Virus record (IMG/VR): IMGVR_UViG_3300031998_000003
Coordinates: 184,670-248,669 of that record
Source of the DNA: a virus
Taxonomy: Duplodnaviria > Caudoviricetes
Strand: one strand, 5' to 3'
DNA length: 64,000 nucleotides
The position numbers and the translations under genes were made by a program. The notes beneath the pieces were generated by a model. It searched no databases. It was not told the origin of the DNA and saw only the letters and a list, made by a program, of their open reading frames with translations. Below are positions 2,982 to 10,861 of this stretch, in pieces. Position 1 is the first letter of the stretch. The number at the start of each line of letters is the position of its first letter.

Positions 2982-3077
2982 TGGATATACTCTCCTTTTC
3001 TATAGATTTTTGGTTTGGTTCCTTATGAGATAAAACGGGCATGATGAATCGCAAATCATGTGGTTAAACCTCACAAT

Positions 3078-3089
3078 TATCTTTTTGTG
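3078..3089 (-). promoter_or_regulatory. Late-type promoter CACA-N6-TA upstream of sheath
   Basis: Minus strand CACA AAAAGA TA; resembles the AR9 late consensus AACA-N6-TA/G. Confidence 0.55.
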
Positions 3090-3120
3090 TGAAGCTCGAT
3101 TAAACCGGCGAAATTGGGTA

Positions 3121-3142
3121 TGTGGGGGCCGAAGCCCCCACA
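3121..3142 (-). terminator. GC-rich hairpin, terminator-like
   Basis: TGTGGGGGC-TTCG-GCCCCCACA (minus) immediately after the stop at 3146; weak U tract. Confidence 0.6.
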
Positions 3143-3145
3143 CAA

Positions 3146-4135
3146 TCACACTGAATCATTTACCGAATCGGTATCTGTATTAATCTCAGATTTGTAGATG
3201 ACCGGATACTTGTTTTCAAGCTCATCTAGAGCAACTTTCGACTCAAGATCAACTTCTTTGATTGCGGCGTTTGGTGGTGGATAATCCGGCATTATCTCAT
3301 TATTTCCATTGAGCGTAACGTATTCTCTGTCGTTGGGATCATCACCAATCATGACATGAATTTTCGGATTGTCCTTTTCAAATTTGACGGTTTCAGGGAC
3401 TTCGTCAACTGATACGACATTTTCCAGCATATTGGAAGCATCAGCAATACTCGTTTCTGGGTATTGAGAGAGCGGCGGTGACGGGACACTCGAGGGATTT
3501 GGCATGTTAAAGATATTATCCACGATTGACTTTCCAACATCGAATGCGGATGCACTTCTTCCAGGTGTTGCCGTTGCAGGACCACCACCAGCAACAGTTT
3601 GTTGTTGTTTGATGCGAAGCTCGGTGATGTTCTTCTTGATAGCCGCCTGCTCCTTTATAATAGAAAGCATTGCACTTCTAGCACTGGTTGCAGCTTGCAT
3701 GGCAGCAATCGCATCTTCGTTCAGTCCGTAAGCACCTTTGTCAGTGTACATCTCCATGGCTTTTCTTTCAAAGACTTTGATCAATTTGGCCTGATCAGCA
3801 GCAAGTGTTTTCAGAGAAGCGATGTCAGACGAGAATATACGGTTCGGATCGATCTTTTCAGGACCGAACATTTCCTGGTTGTAGGTGACATCCAGTGTCG
3901 TTGTCGGTGTGTTCCACAGACCACCGACAAACGGGTTGATGAATCCGTCCATCGGAATATACTGTGGTATTGCGGAAAACTCATGGAATCTTTCCATGAA
4001 TGTATTCGGGCTGTATGGTTCATCAGTCCAATTACTCGTCTGCTGAGGTTCAACACCGTATGCTGAGGAATCCAGACTTTCGAATGGGCAACTGTTATTC
4101 ATTATTCCAATTGCATCAAACATTGAAGAACTCAT
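3146..4135 (-). CDS. Hypothetical protein with central coiled coil (late gene)
   Basis: ORF 3146..4177; better start at ATG 4135 after AAAGGAG; late-type promoter upstream. Confidence 0.8.
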   Translation of the reverse strand: MSSSMFDAIGIMNNSCPFESLDSSAYGVEPQQTSNWTDEPYSPNTFMERFHEFSAIPQYIPMDGFINPFVGGLWNTPTTTLDVTYNQEMFGPEKIDPNRIFSSDIASLKTLAADQAKLIKVFERKAMEMYTDKGAYGLNEDAIAAMQAATSARSAMLSIIKEQAAIKKNITELRIKQQQTVAGGGPATATPGRSASAFDVGKSIVDNIFNMPNPSSVPSPPLSQYPETSIADASNMLENVVSVDEVPETVKFEKDNPKIHVMIGDDPNDREYVTLNGNNEIMPDYPPPNAAIKEVDLESKVALDELENKYPVIYKSEINTDTDSVNDSV

Positions 4136-4180
4136 TTCAGCATCTCCTTTCAAAAAAAATAATTTGAATGTTTCCATCCA

Positions 4181-4192
4181 TACTTAAATGTC
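4181..4192 (-). promoter_or_regulatory. Late-type promoter GACA-N6-TA
   Basis: Minus strand GACA TTTAAG TA in the intergenic gap. Confidence 0.55.
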
Positions 4193-4217
4193 ATTTGCTT
4201 CTGATCTTATTATGGTA

Positions 4218-5723
4218 TCATTCCATTTTTGTCAGACCGTATAGACCATTCAAACATTCAATTTCAATCGGAAATGCTGCATCCATATTTGGTTTTACGC
4301 AATATGCTTTTGAATACATCAGCTTCTCAGCTTGTGCATTTGCTTCTTCGGACCAGATACCTGTGCTCTTGACAGTATCACCGTCATAGTCACCACCAAT
4401 GTTCTGTAGACGAGAATTTGCCATATTGATGACATCAACAAATGACGTGGAAACTTTCATATGTGATGCTTCGGGATTGATGTCAGGATATGTCCGATAC
4501 ACTTCACCCTGAAACTGCACTGGAATTGTGGTGTTTGTTGATAACACATGAATCTTAGAGAAAAATGCACCAAGATGGTGACCGATCGGATAACGAACTG
4601 TGTACATATGTCTGTCAGCAGCGACTGTAGAACGATATCCACATAGATAGATCACATCCGTCAACGTTAGTGGACGTGAGATTGTCTCATTCGTTTTCAT
4701 GTTTAATGCACTGAAAATAATCGGTTTCTTATTTTCCGGATCCAGATATAGGATGCGGAATCTGGATCCAGGGTTTCTCATGAAGATCTGAATCAGATCC
4801 GAGATCATCTTGTCATCGTAGATATTTTCGATATCAGTGCGGTTTACTTCATCCGGATTTGGATGAATGGATACGATGTTATCATATGACAAAAATTGCT
4901 TCATGTGGAATTTCACAAATGGTTGGAATGCAGAGACGATTGTCATCAGCGGATAACCTGTACGAAAAATACCAACCTCTGGAGTATTGGATCTGTATGA
5001 TGGAGCTGATATAACATTTCTGACAGTTCCAACAGTATTCTTTGCCAACAGATTCTTCTGGAAGTAACCATTCTTTGTGCCAACAAATTTGTTGATGTAA
5101 GAGTATAGTTCGATCAACGTATCTTGAATTTGGTTGTTGACACGATGAACTGATGCCGTTGTGTGTGATGTAACACTCTTGAATCCAAGCAGTTTCATGT
5201 ACAAAGAATTCAGCTCGGACTTTACCTGCTTACCATTCTTCATACCACTTGGACGAAATGCCGGTGGTAGCACAAGAACTTTGTCAACAAACAACAACCG
5301 TCTTGGACACTTGATCAAAATATCGAGGGACGCATCATTACGTGTATTTAGATTTTTCTTAATGTCGATTTCTTCCCAGATATTGTATAGATCACGGAAC
5401 CCGCTGTATTTGCCGTCTTCAGCTTCAATCAGTTTTCCATCAATCAGATTGCATCTGATTTCACCATATGCCAACTTACGGATGATACCACCTGACCTGG
5501 TGATGATGTTTTTGGCAACATCAGGATTGAACACATGAATCGGAAGTTTGATATAACCGCAGCGATACTTCTGCTCTTCTTCAGTCTGACCAAAGATTTC
5601 TTCGGAAAAAAGACCATTCGGGTTATATTGATTCGGCGTTGAAAACATGACGGCCGATGTGACTTCCTTCAGATTGTTAACCCTGATATCTTGATCGATA
5701 TCATATAGACCAACAATACGCAT
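4218..5723 (-). CDS. DNA-directed RNA polymerase beta-prime N-terminal half with catalytic site (probably virion RNAP)
   Basis: Motifs GLFSEEIFG, GYIKL, VLVLPPAFRP, KNGYFQKNLLAK..VRNVISAP, RYP and catalytic GGDYDGD; RBS AAGGAGG; preceded by a late-type promoter. Confidence 0.92.
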   Translation of the reverse strand: MRIVGLYDIDQDIRVNNLKEVTSAVMFSTPNQYNPNGLFSEEIFGQTEEEQKYRCGYIKLPIHVFNPDVAKNIITRSGGIIRKLAYGEIRCNLIDGKLIEAEDGKYSGFRDLYNIWEEIDIKKNLNTRNDASLDILIKCPRRLLFVDKVLVLPPAFRPSGMKNGKQVKSELNSLYMKLLGFKSVTSHTTASVHRVNNQIQDTLIELYSYINKFVGTKNGYFQKNLLAKNTVGTVRNVISAPSYRSNTPEVGIFRTGYPLMTIVSAFQPFVKFHMKQFLSYDNIVSIHPNPDEVNRTDIENIYDDKMISDLIQIFMRNPGSRFRILYLDPENKKPIIFSALNMKTNETISRPLTLTDVIYLCGYRSTVAADRHMYTVRYPIGHHLGAFFSKIHVLSTNTTIPVQFQGEVYRTYPDINPEASHMKVSTSFVDVINMANSRLQNIGGDYDGDTVKSTGIWSEEANAQAEKLMYSKAYCVKPNMDAAFPIEIECLNGLYGLTKME

Positions 5724-5751
5724 ATTTCATACCTCCTTAAGTGTATAAAGT

Positions 5752-5763
5752 TACAGAACCGTT
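5752..5763 (-). promoter_or_regulatory. Late-type promoter AACG-N6-TA
   Basis: Minus strand AACG GTTCTG TA just upstream of the RNAP RBS. Confidence 0.6.
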
Positions 5764-5767
5764 TGAT

Positions 5768-5794
5768 CGATGGTGGGGATTTACCCCACCATCG
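5768..5794 (-). terminator. Hairpin, terminator-like
   Basis: CGATGGTGGGG-ATTTA-CCCCACCATCG, 11 bp stem right after the stop at 5797. Confidence 0.6.
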
Positions 5795-5796
5795 TA

Positions 5797-6042
5797 TCAC
5801 TTATGGCGCTCGCGCCACCGATCAATGTATTCAGAAATATCCATATCATTTCTCAGGGAGTACCAGCTAATCAAAAGCATACCAATAAGGCCCGGCCAAA
5901 TGCCGAATGAATCAATGATATGGTTATTTGTAAATAGAACAATGAACAGATCTGCGATGATGTAAGCTATCGATATAATTGCGCCGAACCAGCTTACAAC
6001 GAATCCTACATTCTTCCAGTCGATATGTCGTTTTGTCTTCAT
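5797..6042 (-). CDS. Small membrane protein (two predicted TM segments)
   Basis: AAGGAG-8nt-ATG at 6042; hydrophobic stretches VGFVVSWFGAIISIAYIIADLFIVLF and FGIWPGLIGMLLISWY. Confidence 0.7.
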   Translation of the reverse strand: MKTKRHIDWKNVGFVVSWFGAIISIAYIIADLFIVLFTNNHIIDSFGIWPGLIGMLLISWYSLRNDMDISEYIDRWRERHK

Positions 6043-6183
6043 GTAAAACACTCCTTGCTCTGTAAATCATAAACTTGTATTTCAATCGATTTACATATTC
6101 ACCCATTGAGTACCACCTTCTTTCAATGCACGGGTTCATTGAAAAATTGGAATATTCAGGCCCAACCCCTTCATATTCAAAAT

Positions 6184-6192
6184 AATGATATA
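6184..6192 (-). promoter_or_regulatory. Early-type promoter variant TATATCATT
   Basis: One mismatch to TATATTATT; lies just downstream of a terminator and upstream of the small ORFs. Confidence 0.5.
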
Positions 6193-6205
6193 CATTCATA
6201 AATAT

Positions 6206-6237
6206 AAAAAAAAATATGTGCGGGCCGAAGCCCGCAC
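6206..6237 (-). terminator. Intrinsic terminator
   Basis: GTGCGGGC-TTCG-GCCCGCAC followed by a T9 run on the minus strand. Confidence 0.8.
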
Positions 6238-6357
6238 GCAAAAGAATTCTTGGAGGCGTCACATTTCTGTGACAACCCATGGACAACGGAAAACGTAGAA
6301 AACATACGTTGGGAATTCTTCACACGGCAAGTGAAGAAAGGTTCATTTCATGAACTT
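6206..6357 (-). ncRNA. Putative late multi-hairpin small RNA (~150 nt)
   Basis: Bounded by a late-type promoter (6357-6368) and the terminator; four successive hairpins before the terminator; no RBS-led ORF. Confidence 0.55.
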
Positions 6358-6368
6358 ACAAATTTGTC
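6357..6368 (-). promoter_or_regulatory. Late-type promoter GACA-N6-TA
   Basis: Minus strand GACA AATTTG TA. Confidence 0.5.
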
Positions 6369-6379
6369 GTCATCGTATG

Positions 6380-6388
6380 TATATTATT
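6380..6388 (+). promoter_or_regulatory. Early-type promoter TATATTATT (gyrB operon)
   Basis: Exact motif recurring at 6380, 11946, 13189, 26692 and 47657; resembles AR9/phiKZ early TATATTA motifs. Confidence 0.7.
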
Positions 6389-6464
6389 AAATCGGATAGG
6401 GAAGGTGTATAACTTCTAACCGCCTGAACTAACTTTTACAAACCATCTATAGGAGGATACAGCA

Positions 6465-8810
6465 ATGCCGAAAATCAAAAACGGTCCAATGAAAGATGAT
6501 AAGATTACCATTGTTGATTCCGATGTCGAAAAGATGCGACATCGTCCAACAATGTATATCGCAGCTCTCGGTGAGATGGGTGTACTGCACCTATGTAAAG
6601 AGATCATCGATAATAACCGAGATGAATGTTTGAAGCCGGAATCTCCTGGAGATACTATTAATATTGAGATCACAGATAAGCAGCTTCGTACACGGGATAA
6701 TGGTCGCGGTATTCCGACGAAGCTGCTCCGGGTAGTTCATGAGACAAACCAGGCTGGTTCCAATATGACAAGAGCTCACGGTACAACTGCCGGTGAGAAT
6801 GGAACTGGTACAACTGCAGCACTCGCGATGAGTGACTATTATGAGGTCACAACACTTCGTCCTCAGGAAAAGAAGAAGCTGACACTGGAATATGTTGACT
6901 CGAAGTTGACTGTAGAAGCGCTGGAGGATTATAAGGAGAAAGATCATGGTCTGATCACGACTTATCGTCCGTCCAAGAAGATTCTCGGTTATGACAAGAT
7001 TCCTGTGGATATGCTTGTGAAGTGGATAGAGGACTTCAAGTTTACATTACCAGCAGACATCAAACTGTTCTACTCCGTTCGTGGTGAACAATTCCAGATC
7101 AATCATCGGGCGTTGAATACATACTTTGATGATTTCATCCCTGAAGATCAGCGTATGACATCGGCTCTATCATTTACGACGTCTGGAGAATTGAAGGAAG
7201 TCTTTGATGATGAAGAGTTCCAGCGTTCATTCTCATTGGAAGCTGCTATCGTATATTCATCGCCGGATTACCATGGAGAAGACATTCGTAAGAGTTGGAT
7301 GAATATGATCCACACTTCTCAGAATGGATCACATGTCAATGGTGTTGTGAATGGTCTGATCAAATATCTGTCTGAACGTGTGATCAAACGCAACAAGAAG
7401 CTGGAAGAAGATGAATCTCTGAAGAGAGACATTTTGTCACATCTGCATGTGGTTGTCAATGCGAAGTGTGACTTTGCTCACATGTTTGCCTCACAGGCGA
7501 AGAGCACTGTCTTCCCGAGATCATTGACGATTGCCATTGCGGATGCAACATATAAGACGTTGTGTGAAATGAACCAGAATCGTCTTGCAGAATATGTTGA
7601 GATCGTTCTGCAGAACAACCGTGTTCGCCGTGAAGGTGAGCGTGTTCGCAATGTGACATCTGAGACAAAGAAGAAGCAATGGAGTAAGAGCGATGCCTAT
7701 CTCCCGTGTTCTTCGGTAAAGACAGCACAACCGAAAGAGATCTTCTTCGTTGAGGGTGACTCGGCATCCGGAAGTATCAATGCAGCACGTGATGCAAAGT
7801 ATCAGGCCATTCTCAAGTTCAGAGGTAAGAGTCTGAATGTATGGGATCTGACACTTGATGAGGCTTTGAAGAGTGCTGTATGGTTTGAAGTTGTCAAAGT
7901 TCTCGGGTGCGGTGTTGGTGCATCGTTCGACATTAAAAAGCTGAACTTTGATAAGATCATTATTGCAACGGATGCTGACGTTGATGGATATCATATCCGT
8001 GTTGGTATCTGTGCATTCTTCCTCAAGTTCATGCCGCAGTTGTTTGAACAAGGAAAGATCTACATTGCAGAACCACCACTCTATCAGCTGGCATCTGGTA
8101 AGCAAATCTCTTATGTCACATCACAGACGGAGTATATCGATGTTTGTGTCAAGAGTGTTGGTAACATTGTTCTGAATTTCCCGAACATGCAATTCTCATG
8201 CAAAGCAAGAAAGTTCATCACATCTGCATTTGAATATCTGACACGTTTGAGTGATGTTTCAGCAAAGTTATCTGCGAACAGATATCTGCTGGAGTACGTA
8301 GCACATGGCTTCGTCGTTTGGGGTACCGTTGAGAGATTCATCGAAAACATTGATCAGTGGGTTCGGGATACTTGTAAAGTATTTCCAGAGCTGGGATTTG
8401 ATCACAAGGCGCAACAAATCTATGCTACAGTGGATCTTGTGGACCAGGTTATTGTCCTGGACAATAATCTCATGAATGCACTTTCATATGTCATCAATGT
8501 CCAGCAAGAATACGGTATGTTCGTTGAGTTTGATGGAACACGTCTTCCGTTGGCAAAGTTCTTTGAGGTGATCGAACGTAAGTATCCTGTTATCAAAGAC
8601 AGATACAAGGGCCTTGGTTCCTCGGATGCGGATGTCCTGGAGGAGATTGTTATGAATCCAAAGACACGTCACATCTTCCAGCTGGATGCTTCTGATGCAA
8701 AGACCATGCAGGTATATGATATGCTTGTTGGTAAGTCAAAAGATGCAATGAGAGCACGTAAACAAATGATGCTTGACTTTGAATGGCAGCCGTCTGATAT
8801 TGATACATAA
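6465..8810 (+). CDS. gyrB: Type IIA topoisomerase B subunit (GyrB/ParE-like)
   Basis: MRHRPTMYI, EIIDNNRDE, DNGRGIP (GHKL); GSHVNG, FASQAK; FFVEGDSASGS, RGKSLNV, IIIATDADVDGYHI (TOPRIM); PPLY, RYKGLG. Confidence 0.93.
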   Translation: MPKIKNGPMKDDKITIVDSDVEKMRHRPTMYIAALGEMGVLHLCKEIIDNNRDECLKPESPGDTINIEITDKQLRTRDNGRGIPTKLLRVVHETNQAGSNMTRAHGTTAGENGTGTTAALAMSDYYEVTTLRPQEKKKLTLEYVDSKLTVEALEDYKEKDHGLITTYRPSKKILGYDKIPVDMLVKWIEDFKFTLPADIKLFYSVRGEQFQINHRALNTYFDDFIPEDQRMTSALSFTTSGELKEVFDDEEFQRSFSLEAAIVYSSPDYHGEDIRKSWMNMIHTSQNGSHVNGVVNGLIKYLSERVIKRNKKLEEDESLKRDILSHLHVVVNAKCDFAHMFASQAKSTVFPRSLTIAIADATYKTLCEMNQNRLAEYVEIVLQNNRVRREGERVRNVTSETKKKQWSKSDAYLPCSSVKTAQPKEIFFVEGDSASGSINAARDAKYQAILKFRGKSLNVWDLTLDEALKSAVWFEVVKVLGCGVGASFDIKKLNFDKIIIATDADVDGYHIRVGICAFFLKFMPQLFEQGKIYIAEPPLYQLASGKQISYVTSQTEYIDVCVKSVGNIVLNFPNMQFSCKARKFITSAFEYLTRLSDVSAKLSANRYLLEYVAHGFVVWGTVERFIENIDQWVRDTCKVFPELGFDHKAQQIYATVDLVDQVIVLDNNLMNALSYVINVQQEYGMFVEFDGTRLPLAKFFEVIERKYPVIKDRYKGLGSSDADVLEEIVMNPKTRHIFQLDASDAKTMQVYDMLVGKSKDAMRARKQMMLDFEWQPSDIDT

Positions 8811-8830
8811 AAAGAAATGGAGGAACTCAT

Positions 8831-10861
8831 ATGGGCGAACGGTTTGATTGGATGGTGGATCCCAAGTATTCACTGTTCGAAGATCTTAATGACATCGCAA
8901 ATACTGATAAGGAAATCACAACGGCAAAACAAATTCATCAGTTGATCGGAGATCCGATTATCATCGACCGATACAAAGGTCATTTCGATAGTTTGTTTGA
9001 CAGGTTAGTTGGTATTGCCGAGTTGTGTTGGGGTCTAATTGATCCCGATACAAACGACAAACTTCAGCGTACACCGATTAAAATCAAACATTCCGTTGAT
9101 AATAATGATACGACCGATGTGCATGTGATTCCGCTGAATAGACTGTTGTTCTCGTTATCATTCTTACGTCCGCTGATGCCGTATATCGAAGAAATCAATC
9201 TGGATGACTTCCTGCTCAGACGATTTCTGTCACAGAAAGATCGTCAGGTCTACCAAGATATGATTGTCCGAATACTACAGAAACACGGTGTCGCAATCAC
9301 GGATATTCAGGAGAAAATGGCCCGGATGTCTCTGGATTGGAAGATGCTGTTGAAGGATTTTGCTCAAGCGGATGTTGCAATCTTCACAGCAGAGAATCTG
9401 TTCCTGGATCACTATCGTGAGGATGAGACGATTCGCGAGATCAACAACACGGAATATCCATCTGACATGCAGACTGCTGATATCGTTGAAGAAAATGCGA
9501 AACGTTGGAAAGTACTGGAAGGCATCATGACATTGCGAGGAAATCCGTTCTTCCTCTGTAATAAGTATGTCAAAGTGTTGAAACCGAAGCAAGGTGAAGA
9601 GTTGTACATCAACTTCTCTCAGATTCCTGACGGCAGAAACATCATTCCGGTTATCATGAACGGAAATGGATTCCGTGCAGGTTATGACAAGCTTCCGGTG
9701 TTCTACACAGGTGCGATTGCGTCTCGTGTTCCCGACATTATGAACAAAGACTACATGGGTATTGCTGGATATTTCAACAGAAATTTGATGATTCTCTCAT
9801 ATGGAACAATTTCTCCGACAGTCTGGGATTGCGGTTCTCAGAATCCTATTCCGATTGAAATCGATGAAACCATGCTTGAAATGATGGACGGTCGATATTA
9901 TTATAATCAAAAAGGTGATGGCATTCTGCATATTCTCAAGAAAACCGATAGAGATAAACTCGGAAAGAAGTTGTGGTTCCGTTCTCCATGTACATGTAAT
10001 CTGAATGAAGACTGCTGTCACATCTGCTACGGAACACGTGCCCTAAAGGTTGGTGACTTGAAGGGTGGATTCGTGTACACAACGGAGCAACTGACAAACC
10101 CCGTTCAACAGAATATTCTGTCGGCAAAACATCTGTTGAAATCAAATGCTGAGAAAATCGTATTCTCAACAAACTTCGATAAGTATTTCGTCATGGACAT
10201 GTCTATCATTATGCCGAAAGACGATAAGAAGTTTGACATCTATATTCGTGAGGATTATCTGGACAATATCTCTGAACAGTTTACATGCTATATCGGAAAA
10301 GATCTGGAACCAGTTACAATTTCCAATTACGCTTCTATCAATATTCCGGAAGCCGTGTTGGATAAATGTAAAGAAGTTACGATTGATGATGTGTCCTATT
10401 ATAAGATCACATCGTACAAGATACTTGAATCCGGTGGTCAGTTCTGTATGATCATTCCGATCAATATCATGATGACACAGCGTTACATGGATATCATGAG
10501 ACTGTTTGAACTCGACATTACAAAGTTTGAGAAGGTGGAAGACATTGTTACACGTCTTGCACATATGACACATAACCTAATTCCGATTCTGTCAACACAC
10601 GGTGAGATTCTGATTGGACATCATCTGCGTGCAATTGATAACAAGCTTCTTCGACCGAACTGGCTTGTTCCGGATCAGAAGTATCAGATCATGAGACTGA
10701 AGACAGTCCTTCAGAATACGGAATCGTTTACCACAGCACTTGCATTCGAGCAAACAAAACACCATCTGCTACATACGATCTTCGACGAGAGAAATGCTGT
10801 TAAGCGTGTTGGTGTTCGTTCGTTCCATGACTACATGTTTGGAGAGGAGTATGCAATTTGA
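8831..10861 (+). CDS. RNA polymerase beta-prime C-terminal half (probably non-virion RNAP)
   Basis: Bridge-helix-like AGYFNRNL, DCGS, GRYY, Zn site RSPCTC...CHICYG, trigger-loop-like QQNILSAKHLL; lies in an early operon. Confidence 0.85.
   Translation: MGERFDWMVDPKYSLFEDLNDIANTDKEITTAKQIHQLIGDPIIIDRYKGHFDSLFDRLVGIAELCWGLIDPDTNDKLQRTPIKIKHSVDNNDTTDVHVIPLNRLLFSLSFLRPLMPYIEEINLDDFLLRRFLSQKDRQVYQDMIVRILQKHGVAITDIQEKMARMSLDWKMLLKDFAQADVAIFTAENLFLDHYREDETIREINNTEYPSDMQTADIVEENAKRWKVLEGIMTLRGNPFFLCNKYVKVLKPKQGEELYINFSQIPDGRNIIPVIMNGNGFRAGYDKLPVFYTGAIASRVPDIMNKDYMGIAGYFNRNLMILSYGTISPTVWDCGSQNPIPIEIDETMLEMMDGRYYYNQKGDGILHILKKTDRDKLGKKLWFRSPCTCNLNEDCCHICYGTRALKVGDLKGGFVYTTEQLTNPVQQNILSAKHLLKSNAEKIVFSTNFDKYFVMDMSIIMPKDDKKFDIYIREDYLDNISEQFTCYIGKDLEPVTISNYASINIPEAVLDKCKEVTIDDVSYYKITSYKILESGGQFCMIIPINIMMTQRYMDIMRLFELDITKFEKVEDIVTRLAHMTHNLIPILSTHGEILIGHHLRAIDNKLLRPNWLVPDQKYQIMRLKTVLQNTESFTTALAFEQTKHHLLHTIFDERNAVKRVGVRSFHDYMFGEEYAI

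Follow-up and report, generated by a model that had tools for sequence, protein, structure and literature searches.

A candidate family of structured small RNAs encoded divergently from gyrB in uncultured jumbo phages

Upstream of gyrB in the genome of an uncultured phage, a strong transcription terminator stands on the minus strand with no upstream gene to end, because gyrB and the genes after it lie on the plus strand. What, then, does it terminate? The site lies in the last 64 kb (64,000 nt, 42% G+C; hereafter the window) of the 248,669-bp IMG/VR virus record IMGVR_UViG_3300031998_000003. A preliminary description of this DNA had pointed out the orphan terminator, a UUCG hairpin with nine T, together with a late-type promoter box, GACA-AATTTG-TA, about 150 nt upstream of it and four consecutive hairpins between the two, and had proposed an unannotated structured RNA with a late-type promoter and a terminator of its own. 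We found the terminator at 6237-6206, where it is the sole strong terminator-like site in the interval 3000-9000, read the box at 6368-6356, and recovered the four hairpins at exactly the coordinates listed earlier (Table 1). The proposal is supported by 18 homologs, by covarying stems and by the lack of an open reading frame (ORF), whereas a competing long-range pairing that formed part of it is not conserved. The comparative sequence evidence indicates that the locus is a real and conserved gene for a non-coding, structured small RNA belonging to a new family; its transcription very probably starts at a phage promoter of late type.

The predicted start of the RNA, the A at 6357, was placed by the rule established in Bacillus phage AR9, whose late consensus is AACA-N6-TA/G with the last base as the start site (PMC5312081). 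Folding of the minus strand from 6357 to 6200 (158 nt) gave a string of separate hairpins with a free energy of -48 kcal/mol, compared with -31.3 +/- 3.5 kcal/mol in 200 dinucleotide shuffles, none of which was as stable (z = -4.71). The alternative pairing, AAGAAUUC with GAAUUCUU, which had been thought to compete with hairpin 2, is present here as complementarity; L125, the closest relative, has it in weakened form, and other lineages do not have it. Terminators with a UUCG loop are found again and again across the genome, and a second terminator with a nearly identical GGGCUUCGGCCC core was seen at 3119-3145 (-), after a 343-aa gene.

Table 1. Coordinates of the predicted small RNA, its parts and the neighbouring features in the window
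Feature	Position	Strand	Parts or basis
Late-type promoter box GACA-AATTTG-TAA	6356..6368	-	GACA 6368-6365, AATTTG 6364-6359, TAA 6358-6356
Predicted small RNA, ~150 nt, predicted start to end of U tract	6206..6357	-	fold, covariance model
Hairpin 1, GUUCAU-GAA-AUGAAC, from +3 of the RNA	6341..6355	-	GUUCAU 6355-6350 / AUGAAC 6346-6341
Hairpin 2, UUCUUCAC-UUGCCGU-GUGAAGAA, GCCG in loop	6316..6338	-	UUCUUCAC 6338-6331, loop 6330-6324, GUGAAGAA 6323-6316
Hairpin 3, AACGUA-UGUUUUC-UACGUU	6292..6310	-	AACGUA 6310-6305 / UACGUU 6297-6292
Pyrimidine-rich stretch UCCGUUGUCCAUGG, contains CAU (AUG complement)	6277..6290	-	counterpart of the UCCAUUGU motif of relatives
Hairpin 4, GUCACA-GAAA-UGUGAC	6258..6273	-	GUCACA 6273-6268 / UGUGAC 6263-6258
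CCUCC, complement of the Shine-Dalgarno core GGAGG	6252..6256	-	sequence
Intrinsic terminator GUGCGGGC-UUCG-GCCCGCAC	6206..6237	-	8-bp G+C stem 6237-6218, AUA, U9 6214-6206
Early-type promoter variant TATATCAT-N6-G, directly after the terminator	6178..6192	-	variant also found before other genes
Gene for an 81-aa predicted membrane protein, outside the RNA	5797..6042	-	ribosome-binding site AAGGAG
Canonical late promoter AACGGTTCTGTAA of the beta'-N gene, late-class reference	5751..5763	-	consensus match
RNA polymerase beta'-N gene	4218-5723	-	PHROG 2986 match, E 1.8e-59
Early-type promoter of the gyrB / RNA polymerase beta operon, TATATTAT-N6-G	6380..6394	+	TATATTAT 6380-6387, N6, G 6394
gyrB (type II topoisomerase B subunit)	6465-8810	+	Toprim, GyrB and GyrB_C domains
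RNA polymerase beta gene, next after gyrB	8831-10861	+	matches phage RNA polymerase beta families

Conservation of the intergenic region between the polymerase gene and gyrB had been named in the preliminary description as a check, and the unit proved to be kept in relatives. Searches with the beta'-N protein and then with its alignment yielded about 28 loci in viral contigs at 54-74% identity, many of which carry a unit of the same plan between divergent gyrB and beta' genes. Scans of viral and metagenome contigs with the pattern ACAAA-N4-TAAGTTCAT-N2-8-TGAAC yielded further members, the many chance matches in coding sequence being discarded, and a covariance model of the family (R1) then added two more divergent members, L042 and L046. 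The total is 18 distinct homologs from about 11 lineages of related uncultured jumbo phages, and the order of parts is common to all of them. R1 scores 119.8 bits at the locus described here, the single copy that it finds in this genome, and four relatives' records have one copy each; it detects no paralog in this genome, where the other matches have E values of at least 0.016 and resemble terminators. A weak second R1 match (30 bits, E 4e-4) occurs in the L051 phage at G004:C1:97486-97631 (+), and could be a paralog that has diverged or an RNA that is similarly laid out yet unrelated.

Six parts follow one another in the shared plan. The first is the promoter box, [G/T/A]ACA-N6-TAAG in the homologs except in L042, which has AACG, so that NAC(A/G)-N6-TAAG describes all 18. 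The second is a hairpin at +3 with the nearly invariant stem GUUCAU/AUGAAC and a loop of 2-7 nt (95% of cells paired over the 18 sequences), in which L125 shows a U-A to U.G change. The third is hairpin 2, whose stem differs by lineage while GCCG is kept in the loop: UUCUUCAC/GUGAAGAA in this genome, AAUCUUCAU/AUGAAGAUU in L096, AGAUUGUCUUUU/AAAAGACAAUCU in L038 and UAUCAC/GUGAUA in L051. The fourth, the middle of the RNA, is mostly unpaired and carries CCUCC and UCCAUUGU-like motifs. The fifth, at the position of hairpin 4, is a long perfect hairpin of 8-14 bp that is found in every lineage with unrelated sequences, and the sixth is a G+C hairpin followed by a U tract, present in all homologs and on this strand only. 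The expectation that the hairpins would be conserved thus holds for hairpins 1 and 2, the long hairpin before the terminator and the terminator itself, and fails in part: L187 and L046 lack hairpin 2, and hairpin 3 is variable or absent in other lineages, being kept in L179 and in L125 through a U-A to U.G change.

Statistical measures also show the structure to be conserved. Each of the nine homologs first folded had a z score of -4 to -8 against mononucleotide shuffles. In a model-based alignment of the family (A4), we counted 33 double-change cells, compared with 13.6 +/- 3.0 in shuffles (0/500 reached 33), and the covariation score was 0.178 versus 0.089 in shuffles and 0.05-0.08 with slid partners; these numbers are rough, since the model itself shaped the alignment and unequal stem lengths leave it with register errors, helices 2 and 3 reaching just 68-73% pairing. 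In the same alignment, seven of the eight pairs of hairpin 2 show compensatory changes across homologs. A per-sequence table of hairpins, which needs no alignment, gave the same structural picture.

Could the locus instead encode a small protein? Short ORFs do occur on both strands, and several homologs start one at the AUGAAC of hairpin 1. Nevertheless, no ORF is conserved on either strand across the homologs; those present have 8-53 codons, share nothing beyond that AUGAAC (the first 3-4 residues) and have no Shine-Dalgarno (SD) sequence before them, which makes this explanation scarcely credible. On the opposite strand, mini-ORFs behind GGAGG, read by hand, span 2-40 codons, the systematic ORF list covering those of at least 12 codons. 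A cis-antisense RNA was considered and rejected, since no conserved ORF lies opposite and the plus strand here is the region upstream of the gyrB promoter. The comparison with known RNA families by covariance models, the other computational check named earlier, returned no match in Rfam 15, all families (including 6S, c4, tmRNA and tRNA-like RNAs) having been searched with E up to 10 at the locus and up to 1 at eight homologous loci; the best E value was at least 0.15, far below gathering scores. The locus therefore has what an independent small-RNA gene should have, namely its own promoter box, an intrinsic terminator, no conserved ORF between them, and compensatory changes.

The promoter box was compared with both promoter classes of the clade. 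Gene upstream regions in this genome show AAAACG-N6-TAA ending about 25 nt before the start codon. Across six related genomes, AACG-N6-TAA has 66 matches, 47 of them intergenic although intergenic DNA makes up 5-10% of the sequence, and 35 lie 15-45 nt before a start codon. The spacing is strict, as only 8 of 182 occurrences of the same late words with N5 or N7 spacing are intergenic in the six genomes. AACA-N6-TAA occurs only twice in this genome, both times within genes. Because the N6 matches are mostly intergenic and the N5 and N7 matches almost never are, the late promoter core of this clade is AACG-N6-TAA, not the AACA of AR9. The small-RNA box, GACA-N6-TAA, shares the N6-TAA geometry of the AR9-type late promoters and on these sequence features belongs with them. 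The same GACA-N6-TAA is found at genome position 23201, where it precedes an ordinary gene by the canonical 25 nt, and the box of the homolog L042, AACG-AGAATG-TAAG, has the canonical late form of the clade. An intergenic GACA-GAAAGG-TAAG box without a nearby start codon was seen in two relatives (G001:C1 ~270302 (+) and G003:C1 ~167376 (+)) and may mark another small-RNA gene with the same promoter subtype.

On the other strand, the TATATTAT sites of the genome reveal a long early consensus, ctatcTATATATTATTAATGTGAATA, with about seven near-perfect copies; its counterpart in AR9 is the early consensus AAATATATATTAT-N6-G (PMC5312081). The early site that faces the small-RNA box is a weaker member of this class, 71 nt before gyrB. 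The two predicted start sites are divergent and 37 bp apart, and the boxes are separated by the 11-nt gap that the preliminary description had noted. This arrangement is not peculiar to the window: an early-type promoter faces the small-RNA box in 18/18 homologs, the divergent gene being gyrB in 17, and the spacer between boxes is exactly 11 nt in 15 of the 18, though its sequence drifts. The spacing suggests that the two promoters may occlude one another, as had been proposed.

So regular a geometry raises the question of whether transcription itself is the function, with a late polymerase only 37 bp from the early start shutting off the operon of gyrB and the non-virion polymerase, and the RNA being a by-product. 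The divergent arrangement in all homologs and the constant spacer are what this explanation would predict. A by-product, however, would not be expected to keep covarying stems, a GCCG loop and an exposed CCUCC. Divergent pairs of early and late promoters are, moreover, common in AR9 (PMC5312081) and in this genome. In L042 the neighbour is a gene other than gyrB and the boxes are 44 nt apart; hairpin 1 and the remaining parts are kept even so, and the RNA is therefore more than an upstream element of the gyrB promoter. We regard the explanation by transcription alone as unlikely. A combined scheme can also be drawn, in which the non-virion polymerase, on the small-RNA promoter, would shut the virion polymerase off its own operon while the CCUCC of the RNA would silence the remaining early or host messages. 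Such an interlocked switch seems to us a long shot, and we know of no jumbo phage for which a circuit of polymerase autoregulation with a non-coding RNA arm has been described.

Another possibility is that the RNA is a cis-acting leader or attenuator of the downstream gene, which is the 81-aa gene here and the RNA polymerase beta' gene in relatives. The RNA is co-directional with the genes downstream, and in several relatives the beta' promoter begins less than 20 nt after the terminator. The downstream gene differs between relatives, however, and always has its own promoter, of either class: an early box follows the RNA directly in this genome and also in L096, L124, L163 and L187, and a late promoter of beta' does so in L038, L039, L041, L043, L044 and L051. 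Because the neighbour and its promoter class vary in this way, the RNA is not a leader. The terminator is strong, too, and has no conserved competing fold, given that the AAGAAUUC pairing is not conserved. For the same reasons, and because no Rfam cis-regulatory family matched, a riboswitch or leader attenuator was rejected during the analysis; we consider a leader function very improbable. The 81-aa gene of this genome is a separate unit because it is served by its own TATATCAT-N6-G promoter. Its ORF is conserved in L179, and its first residues are conserved in L125, whose contig ends there. The 5' leader of this gene (~135 nt, 6043-6177) contains G+C-rich inverted repeats (GGGGUUGGGCC...), and an overlapping frame of 60-91 aa is open in the window and in L179 and is not kept in L125.

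We then considered how a stand-alone RNA of this kind might act. CCUCC, the complement of the SD core, is found in 14 of the 18 RNA bodies (shuffle mean 1.6, maximum 6), CUCC in 17/18, GCCG in 14/18 (shuffle mean 2.6), CCATTG in 6/18 (shuffle mean 0.56) and CAU-N5-10-CUCC in 8/18 (shuffle mean 0.76), although these counts come from related sequences and their independence is overstated. In most homologs, the CUCC is predicted to be unpaired with a probability of 0.8-1.0, compared with 0.45-0.5 for the whole RNAs. CAU, a spacer and CCUCC form the mirror image of an SD sequence, a spacer and AUG, an arrangement that holds in those 8 homologs and not cleanly in this window. Pairing with SD regions is the most economical reading of the conserved, exposed CCUCC and is our leading hypothesis. 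According to this hypothesis, the non-virion RNA polymerase would start at the A of GACA-N6-TAA late in infection; the hairpin at +3 would cap the 5' end of the RNA, and the UUCG hairpin with U9 would end it near 6206. The RNA would then be trans-acting: its exposed CCUCC, which in many homologs has a CAU 5-10 nt before it, would base-pair with the region from the SD sequence to the AUG of at least one mRNA and block ribosome loading. The candidate target would be a host mRNA or a set of phage mRNAs, and the fixed position against the early promoter of gyrB and the non-virion polymerase may, speculatively, add transcriptional interference. To a stand-alone late small RNA that blocks translation in this way, we assign about an even chance of being the correct explanation.

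Several observations weigh against it, in addition to the relatedness of the sequences counted above. The CCUCC of this window is predicted to be unpaired with a probability of only 0.39, and a hairpin lies between the CAU and the CCUCC. The GACA of the promoter box differs at two positions from the AACG core of the clade, and the late class of the small RNA, like the use and timing of the promoter and the ends of the RNA, is deduced from motifs. G.U pairs, which can betray the transcribed strand, number 53 on this strand and 51 on the opposite one, and a strand call from this asymmetry was discarded as uninformative. Because the G.U counts favour neither strand, the strand assignment depends on the U tract, the promoter box and the orientation of CCUCC, which agree with one another in every homolog.

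This lack of strand bias in G.U pairs, together with the nearly equal folding of the two strands, would also fit an element that works as DNA in the intergenic region between gyrB and the polymerase gene, for example as an origin of replication or a series of cruciforms. A DNA element would not explain why in every homolog only one of the strands has a U tract after the GC hairpin, why the promoter box stands at a fixed distance from hairpin 1, or why CCUCC occurs in one orientation. In addition, a loop of variable length (2-7 nt), as in hairpin 1, is ill-suited to a dimeric DNA-binding site, and neither iterons nor an AT-rich unwinding block were seen at the locus. A DNA-level role is, in our judgment, highly improbable.

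Given that CAU-spacer-CCUCC mirrors SD-spacer-AUG, we searched start regions for a partner of the RNA, and the results count on the same side as the points against translational blocking listed above. Pairing of the RNAs with the start region of gyrB, which looked good by eye in L048 and L051, was no better overall for cognate than for non-cognate combinations; the cognate pair ranked best for three RNAs and close to last for four, one of them the RNA described here. Antisense patterns of 17-20 nt with up to 3 mismatches recovered only the RNA's own locus in two complete relatives, one pattern search adding two imperfect sites in G001 that were not taken for start regions. For a wider scan, genes were called crudely in five relatives' records, orthologs were mapped, and all start regions were scored against each phage's own RNA; in these six genomes, the best combined Z values among 109 orthologous groups were -3.1 and -3.0, not significant after correction. 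A seed search in the phage's own genome found only 10-13-mers, at chance level, and a first duplex scan with an 80-nt body was discarded because it gave sloppy long duplexes. The top start regions in this genome are those with the strongest AAGGAGGAA / GGAGG sites. Because the target searches were negative, the mode of action is one that we infer.

Some further observations were made during these searches. Two unrelated genes of 142 and 138 aa, at genome positions 140297 (+) and 233189 (+) (window 48520), have a near-identical start region, AAGGAGGAACAC..A(A/C)CAUGGCA, and take places 2 and 3 among 218 in pairing with this RNA, a rank not shared by their orthologs in other phages. At genome positions 172600-173120, outside the window, GGAGGAACAUCACACAUGG on the minus strand corresponds to CAU-N10-CCUCC on the plus strand, and no sequence similarity to the small RNA was seen in that region. 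Two other ideas were dropped. Mimicry of the uracil-containing template strand of a late promoter (5'-UA-N6-[C/U]GUU) failed on spacing when several homologs were inspected by eye, and pairing of the hairpin-2 loop with a CGGC in the terminator loop is available in some lineages only.

The negative searches for an mRNA target are compatible with a different role, in which the RNA is real and serves as a scaffold or decoy for a protein (the phage RNA polymerase, a host RNA-binding protein or a ribonuclease), with hairpin 1 and the GCCG loop as recognition sites. The stem of hairpin 1 is nearly invariant while other stems drift, and the GCCG loop sits on a covarying stem, both of which fit sequence-specific recognition. 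On the other hand, the 5' arm of hairpin 1 is also the initially transcribed part of the promoter, which can equally explain its invariance; CCUCC with an upstream CAU is a typical signature of start-region pairing; and no gene for a partner protein is linked to the locus. Protein binding is a possible role that we think unlikely.

The best deposited relatives of the gyrB protein are AR9/PBS1-like jumbo phages of Staphylococcus and Listeria, at 24% identity only. The beta'-N protein, in which DYDGD is among the invariant alignment columns, is 29-31% identical to the products of rpoC1-like genes of LPJP1 and Goe21. Because of these relatives of gyrB and the matches of the beta and beta'-N genes (Table 1), we conclude from the protein comparisons that this uncultured phage is a distant member of the AR9-like group with two multisubunit polymerases, as had been assumed at the outset. 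At the DNA level, no similarity to deposited phages was found.

Small RNAs of strictly lytic phages are barely charted. The transcriptome study of phiKZ reported one unconfirmed small-RNA candidate and noted that such RNAs have been predicted for very few virulent phages (PMC8244752). The present locus offers a candidate family with clear boundaries, 18 distinct members and a usable covariance model, and its promoter is of the type that a multisubunit polymerase encoded by the phage reads. Should expression be confirmed, multisubunit phage polymerases would be seen to make regulatory RNAs as well. The family would also open late gene control to study in this clade of uncultured jumbo phages, and provide a system for exposed anti-SD action where phage and host share the ribosome-binding sequence.

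Among characterized phages, AR9 offers the closest parallel. Its late units are likewise built from a box of four bases, a spacer of six and a TA where transcription starts (PMC5312081), its late promoters can be divergent from AT-rich early promoters of the TATATTAT-N6-G type, and its beta and beta' subunits are split. It differs in the core of the box, which is AACA there, AACG in the clade studied here and NACA in the small-RNA box. In AR9, late promoters were placed before protein genes and one tRNA gene, with no such small RNA described; the start sites in that study were mapped before annotated genes, and the word 'noncoding' does not occur in the main text of the paper (PMC5312081). The characterized relatives LPJP1 (Listeria) and S6 (Staphylococcus) show protein identities of only 24-31%, and other genes, not the small-RNA unit, stand upstream of their gyrB.

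Among structured RNAs, 6S RNA and the pRNA of phi29 were considered because polymerase genes adjoin the locus, and both resemble the RNA described here in being structured, non-coding and 150-200 nt long. They are abundant RNAs with protein partners, the polymerase and the packaging motor, respectively. The RNA described here has neither the long interrupted helix with a central bubble of 6S RNA nor a three-way junction like that of pRNA. In function, the nearest parallels are RBS-blocking RNAs of phages and SD-masking small RNAs of Gram-positive bacteria. Phage RNAs that block ribosome-binding sites are known from temperate phages, namely c4 of P1/P7, sar of P22 and DicF of a defective prophage, and each acts on a known mRNA, usually a linked one. 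Like them, the RNA described here is a short phage RNA with exposed bases complementary to a start region; unlike them, it has no complementary phage mRNA that we could find, and it shares with them neither an Rfam match nor sequence. In Gram-positive bacteria, trans-acting small RNAs that mask SD sequences through exposed C-rich motifs include RsaE/RoxS and the hairpins of S. aureus RNAIII. These have no sequence or Rfam relation to the RNA of this family, which is encoded by a phage, presumably made by a phage polymerase, and carries its CCUCC in a linker, whereas theirs is a UCCC in loops. Nevertheless, they share with it the multi-hairpin architecture, the intrinsic terminator and the accessible C-rich motif complementary to GGAGG.

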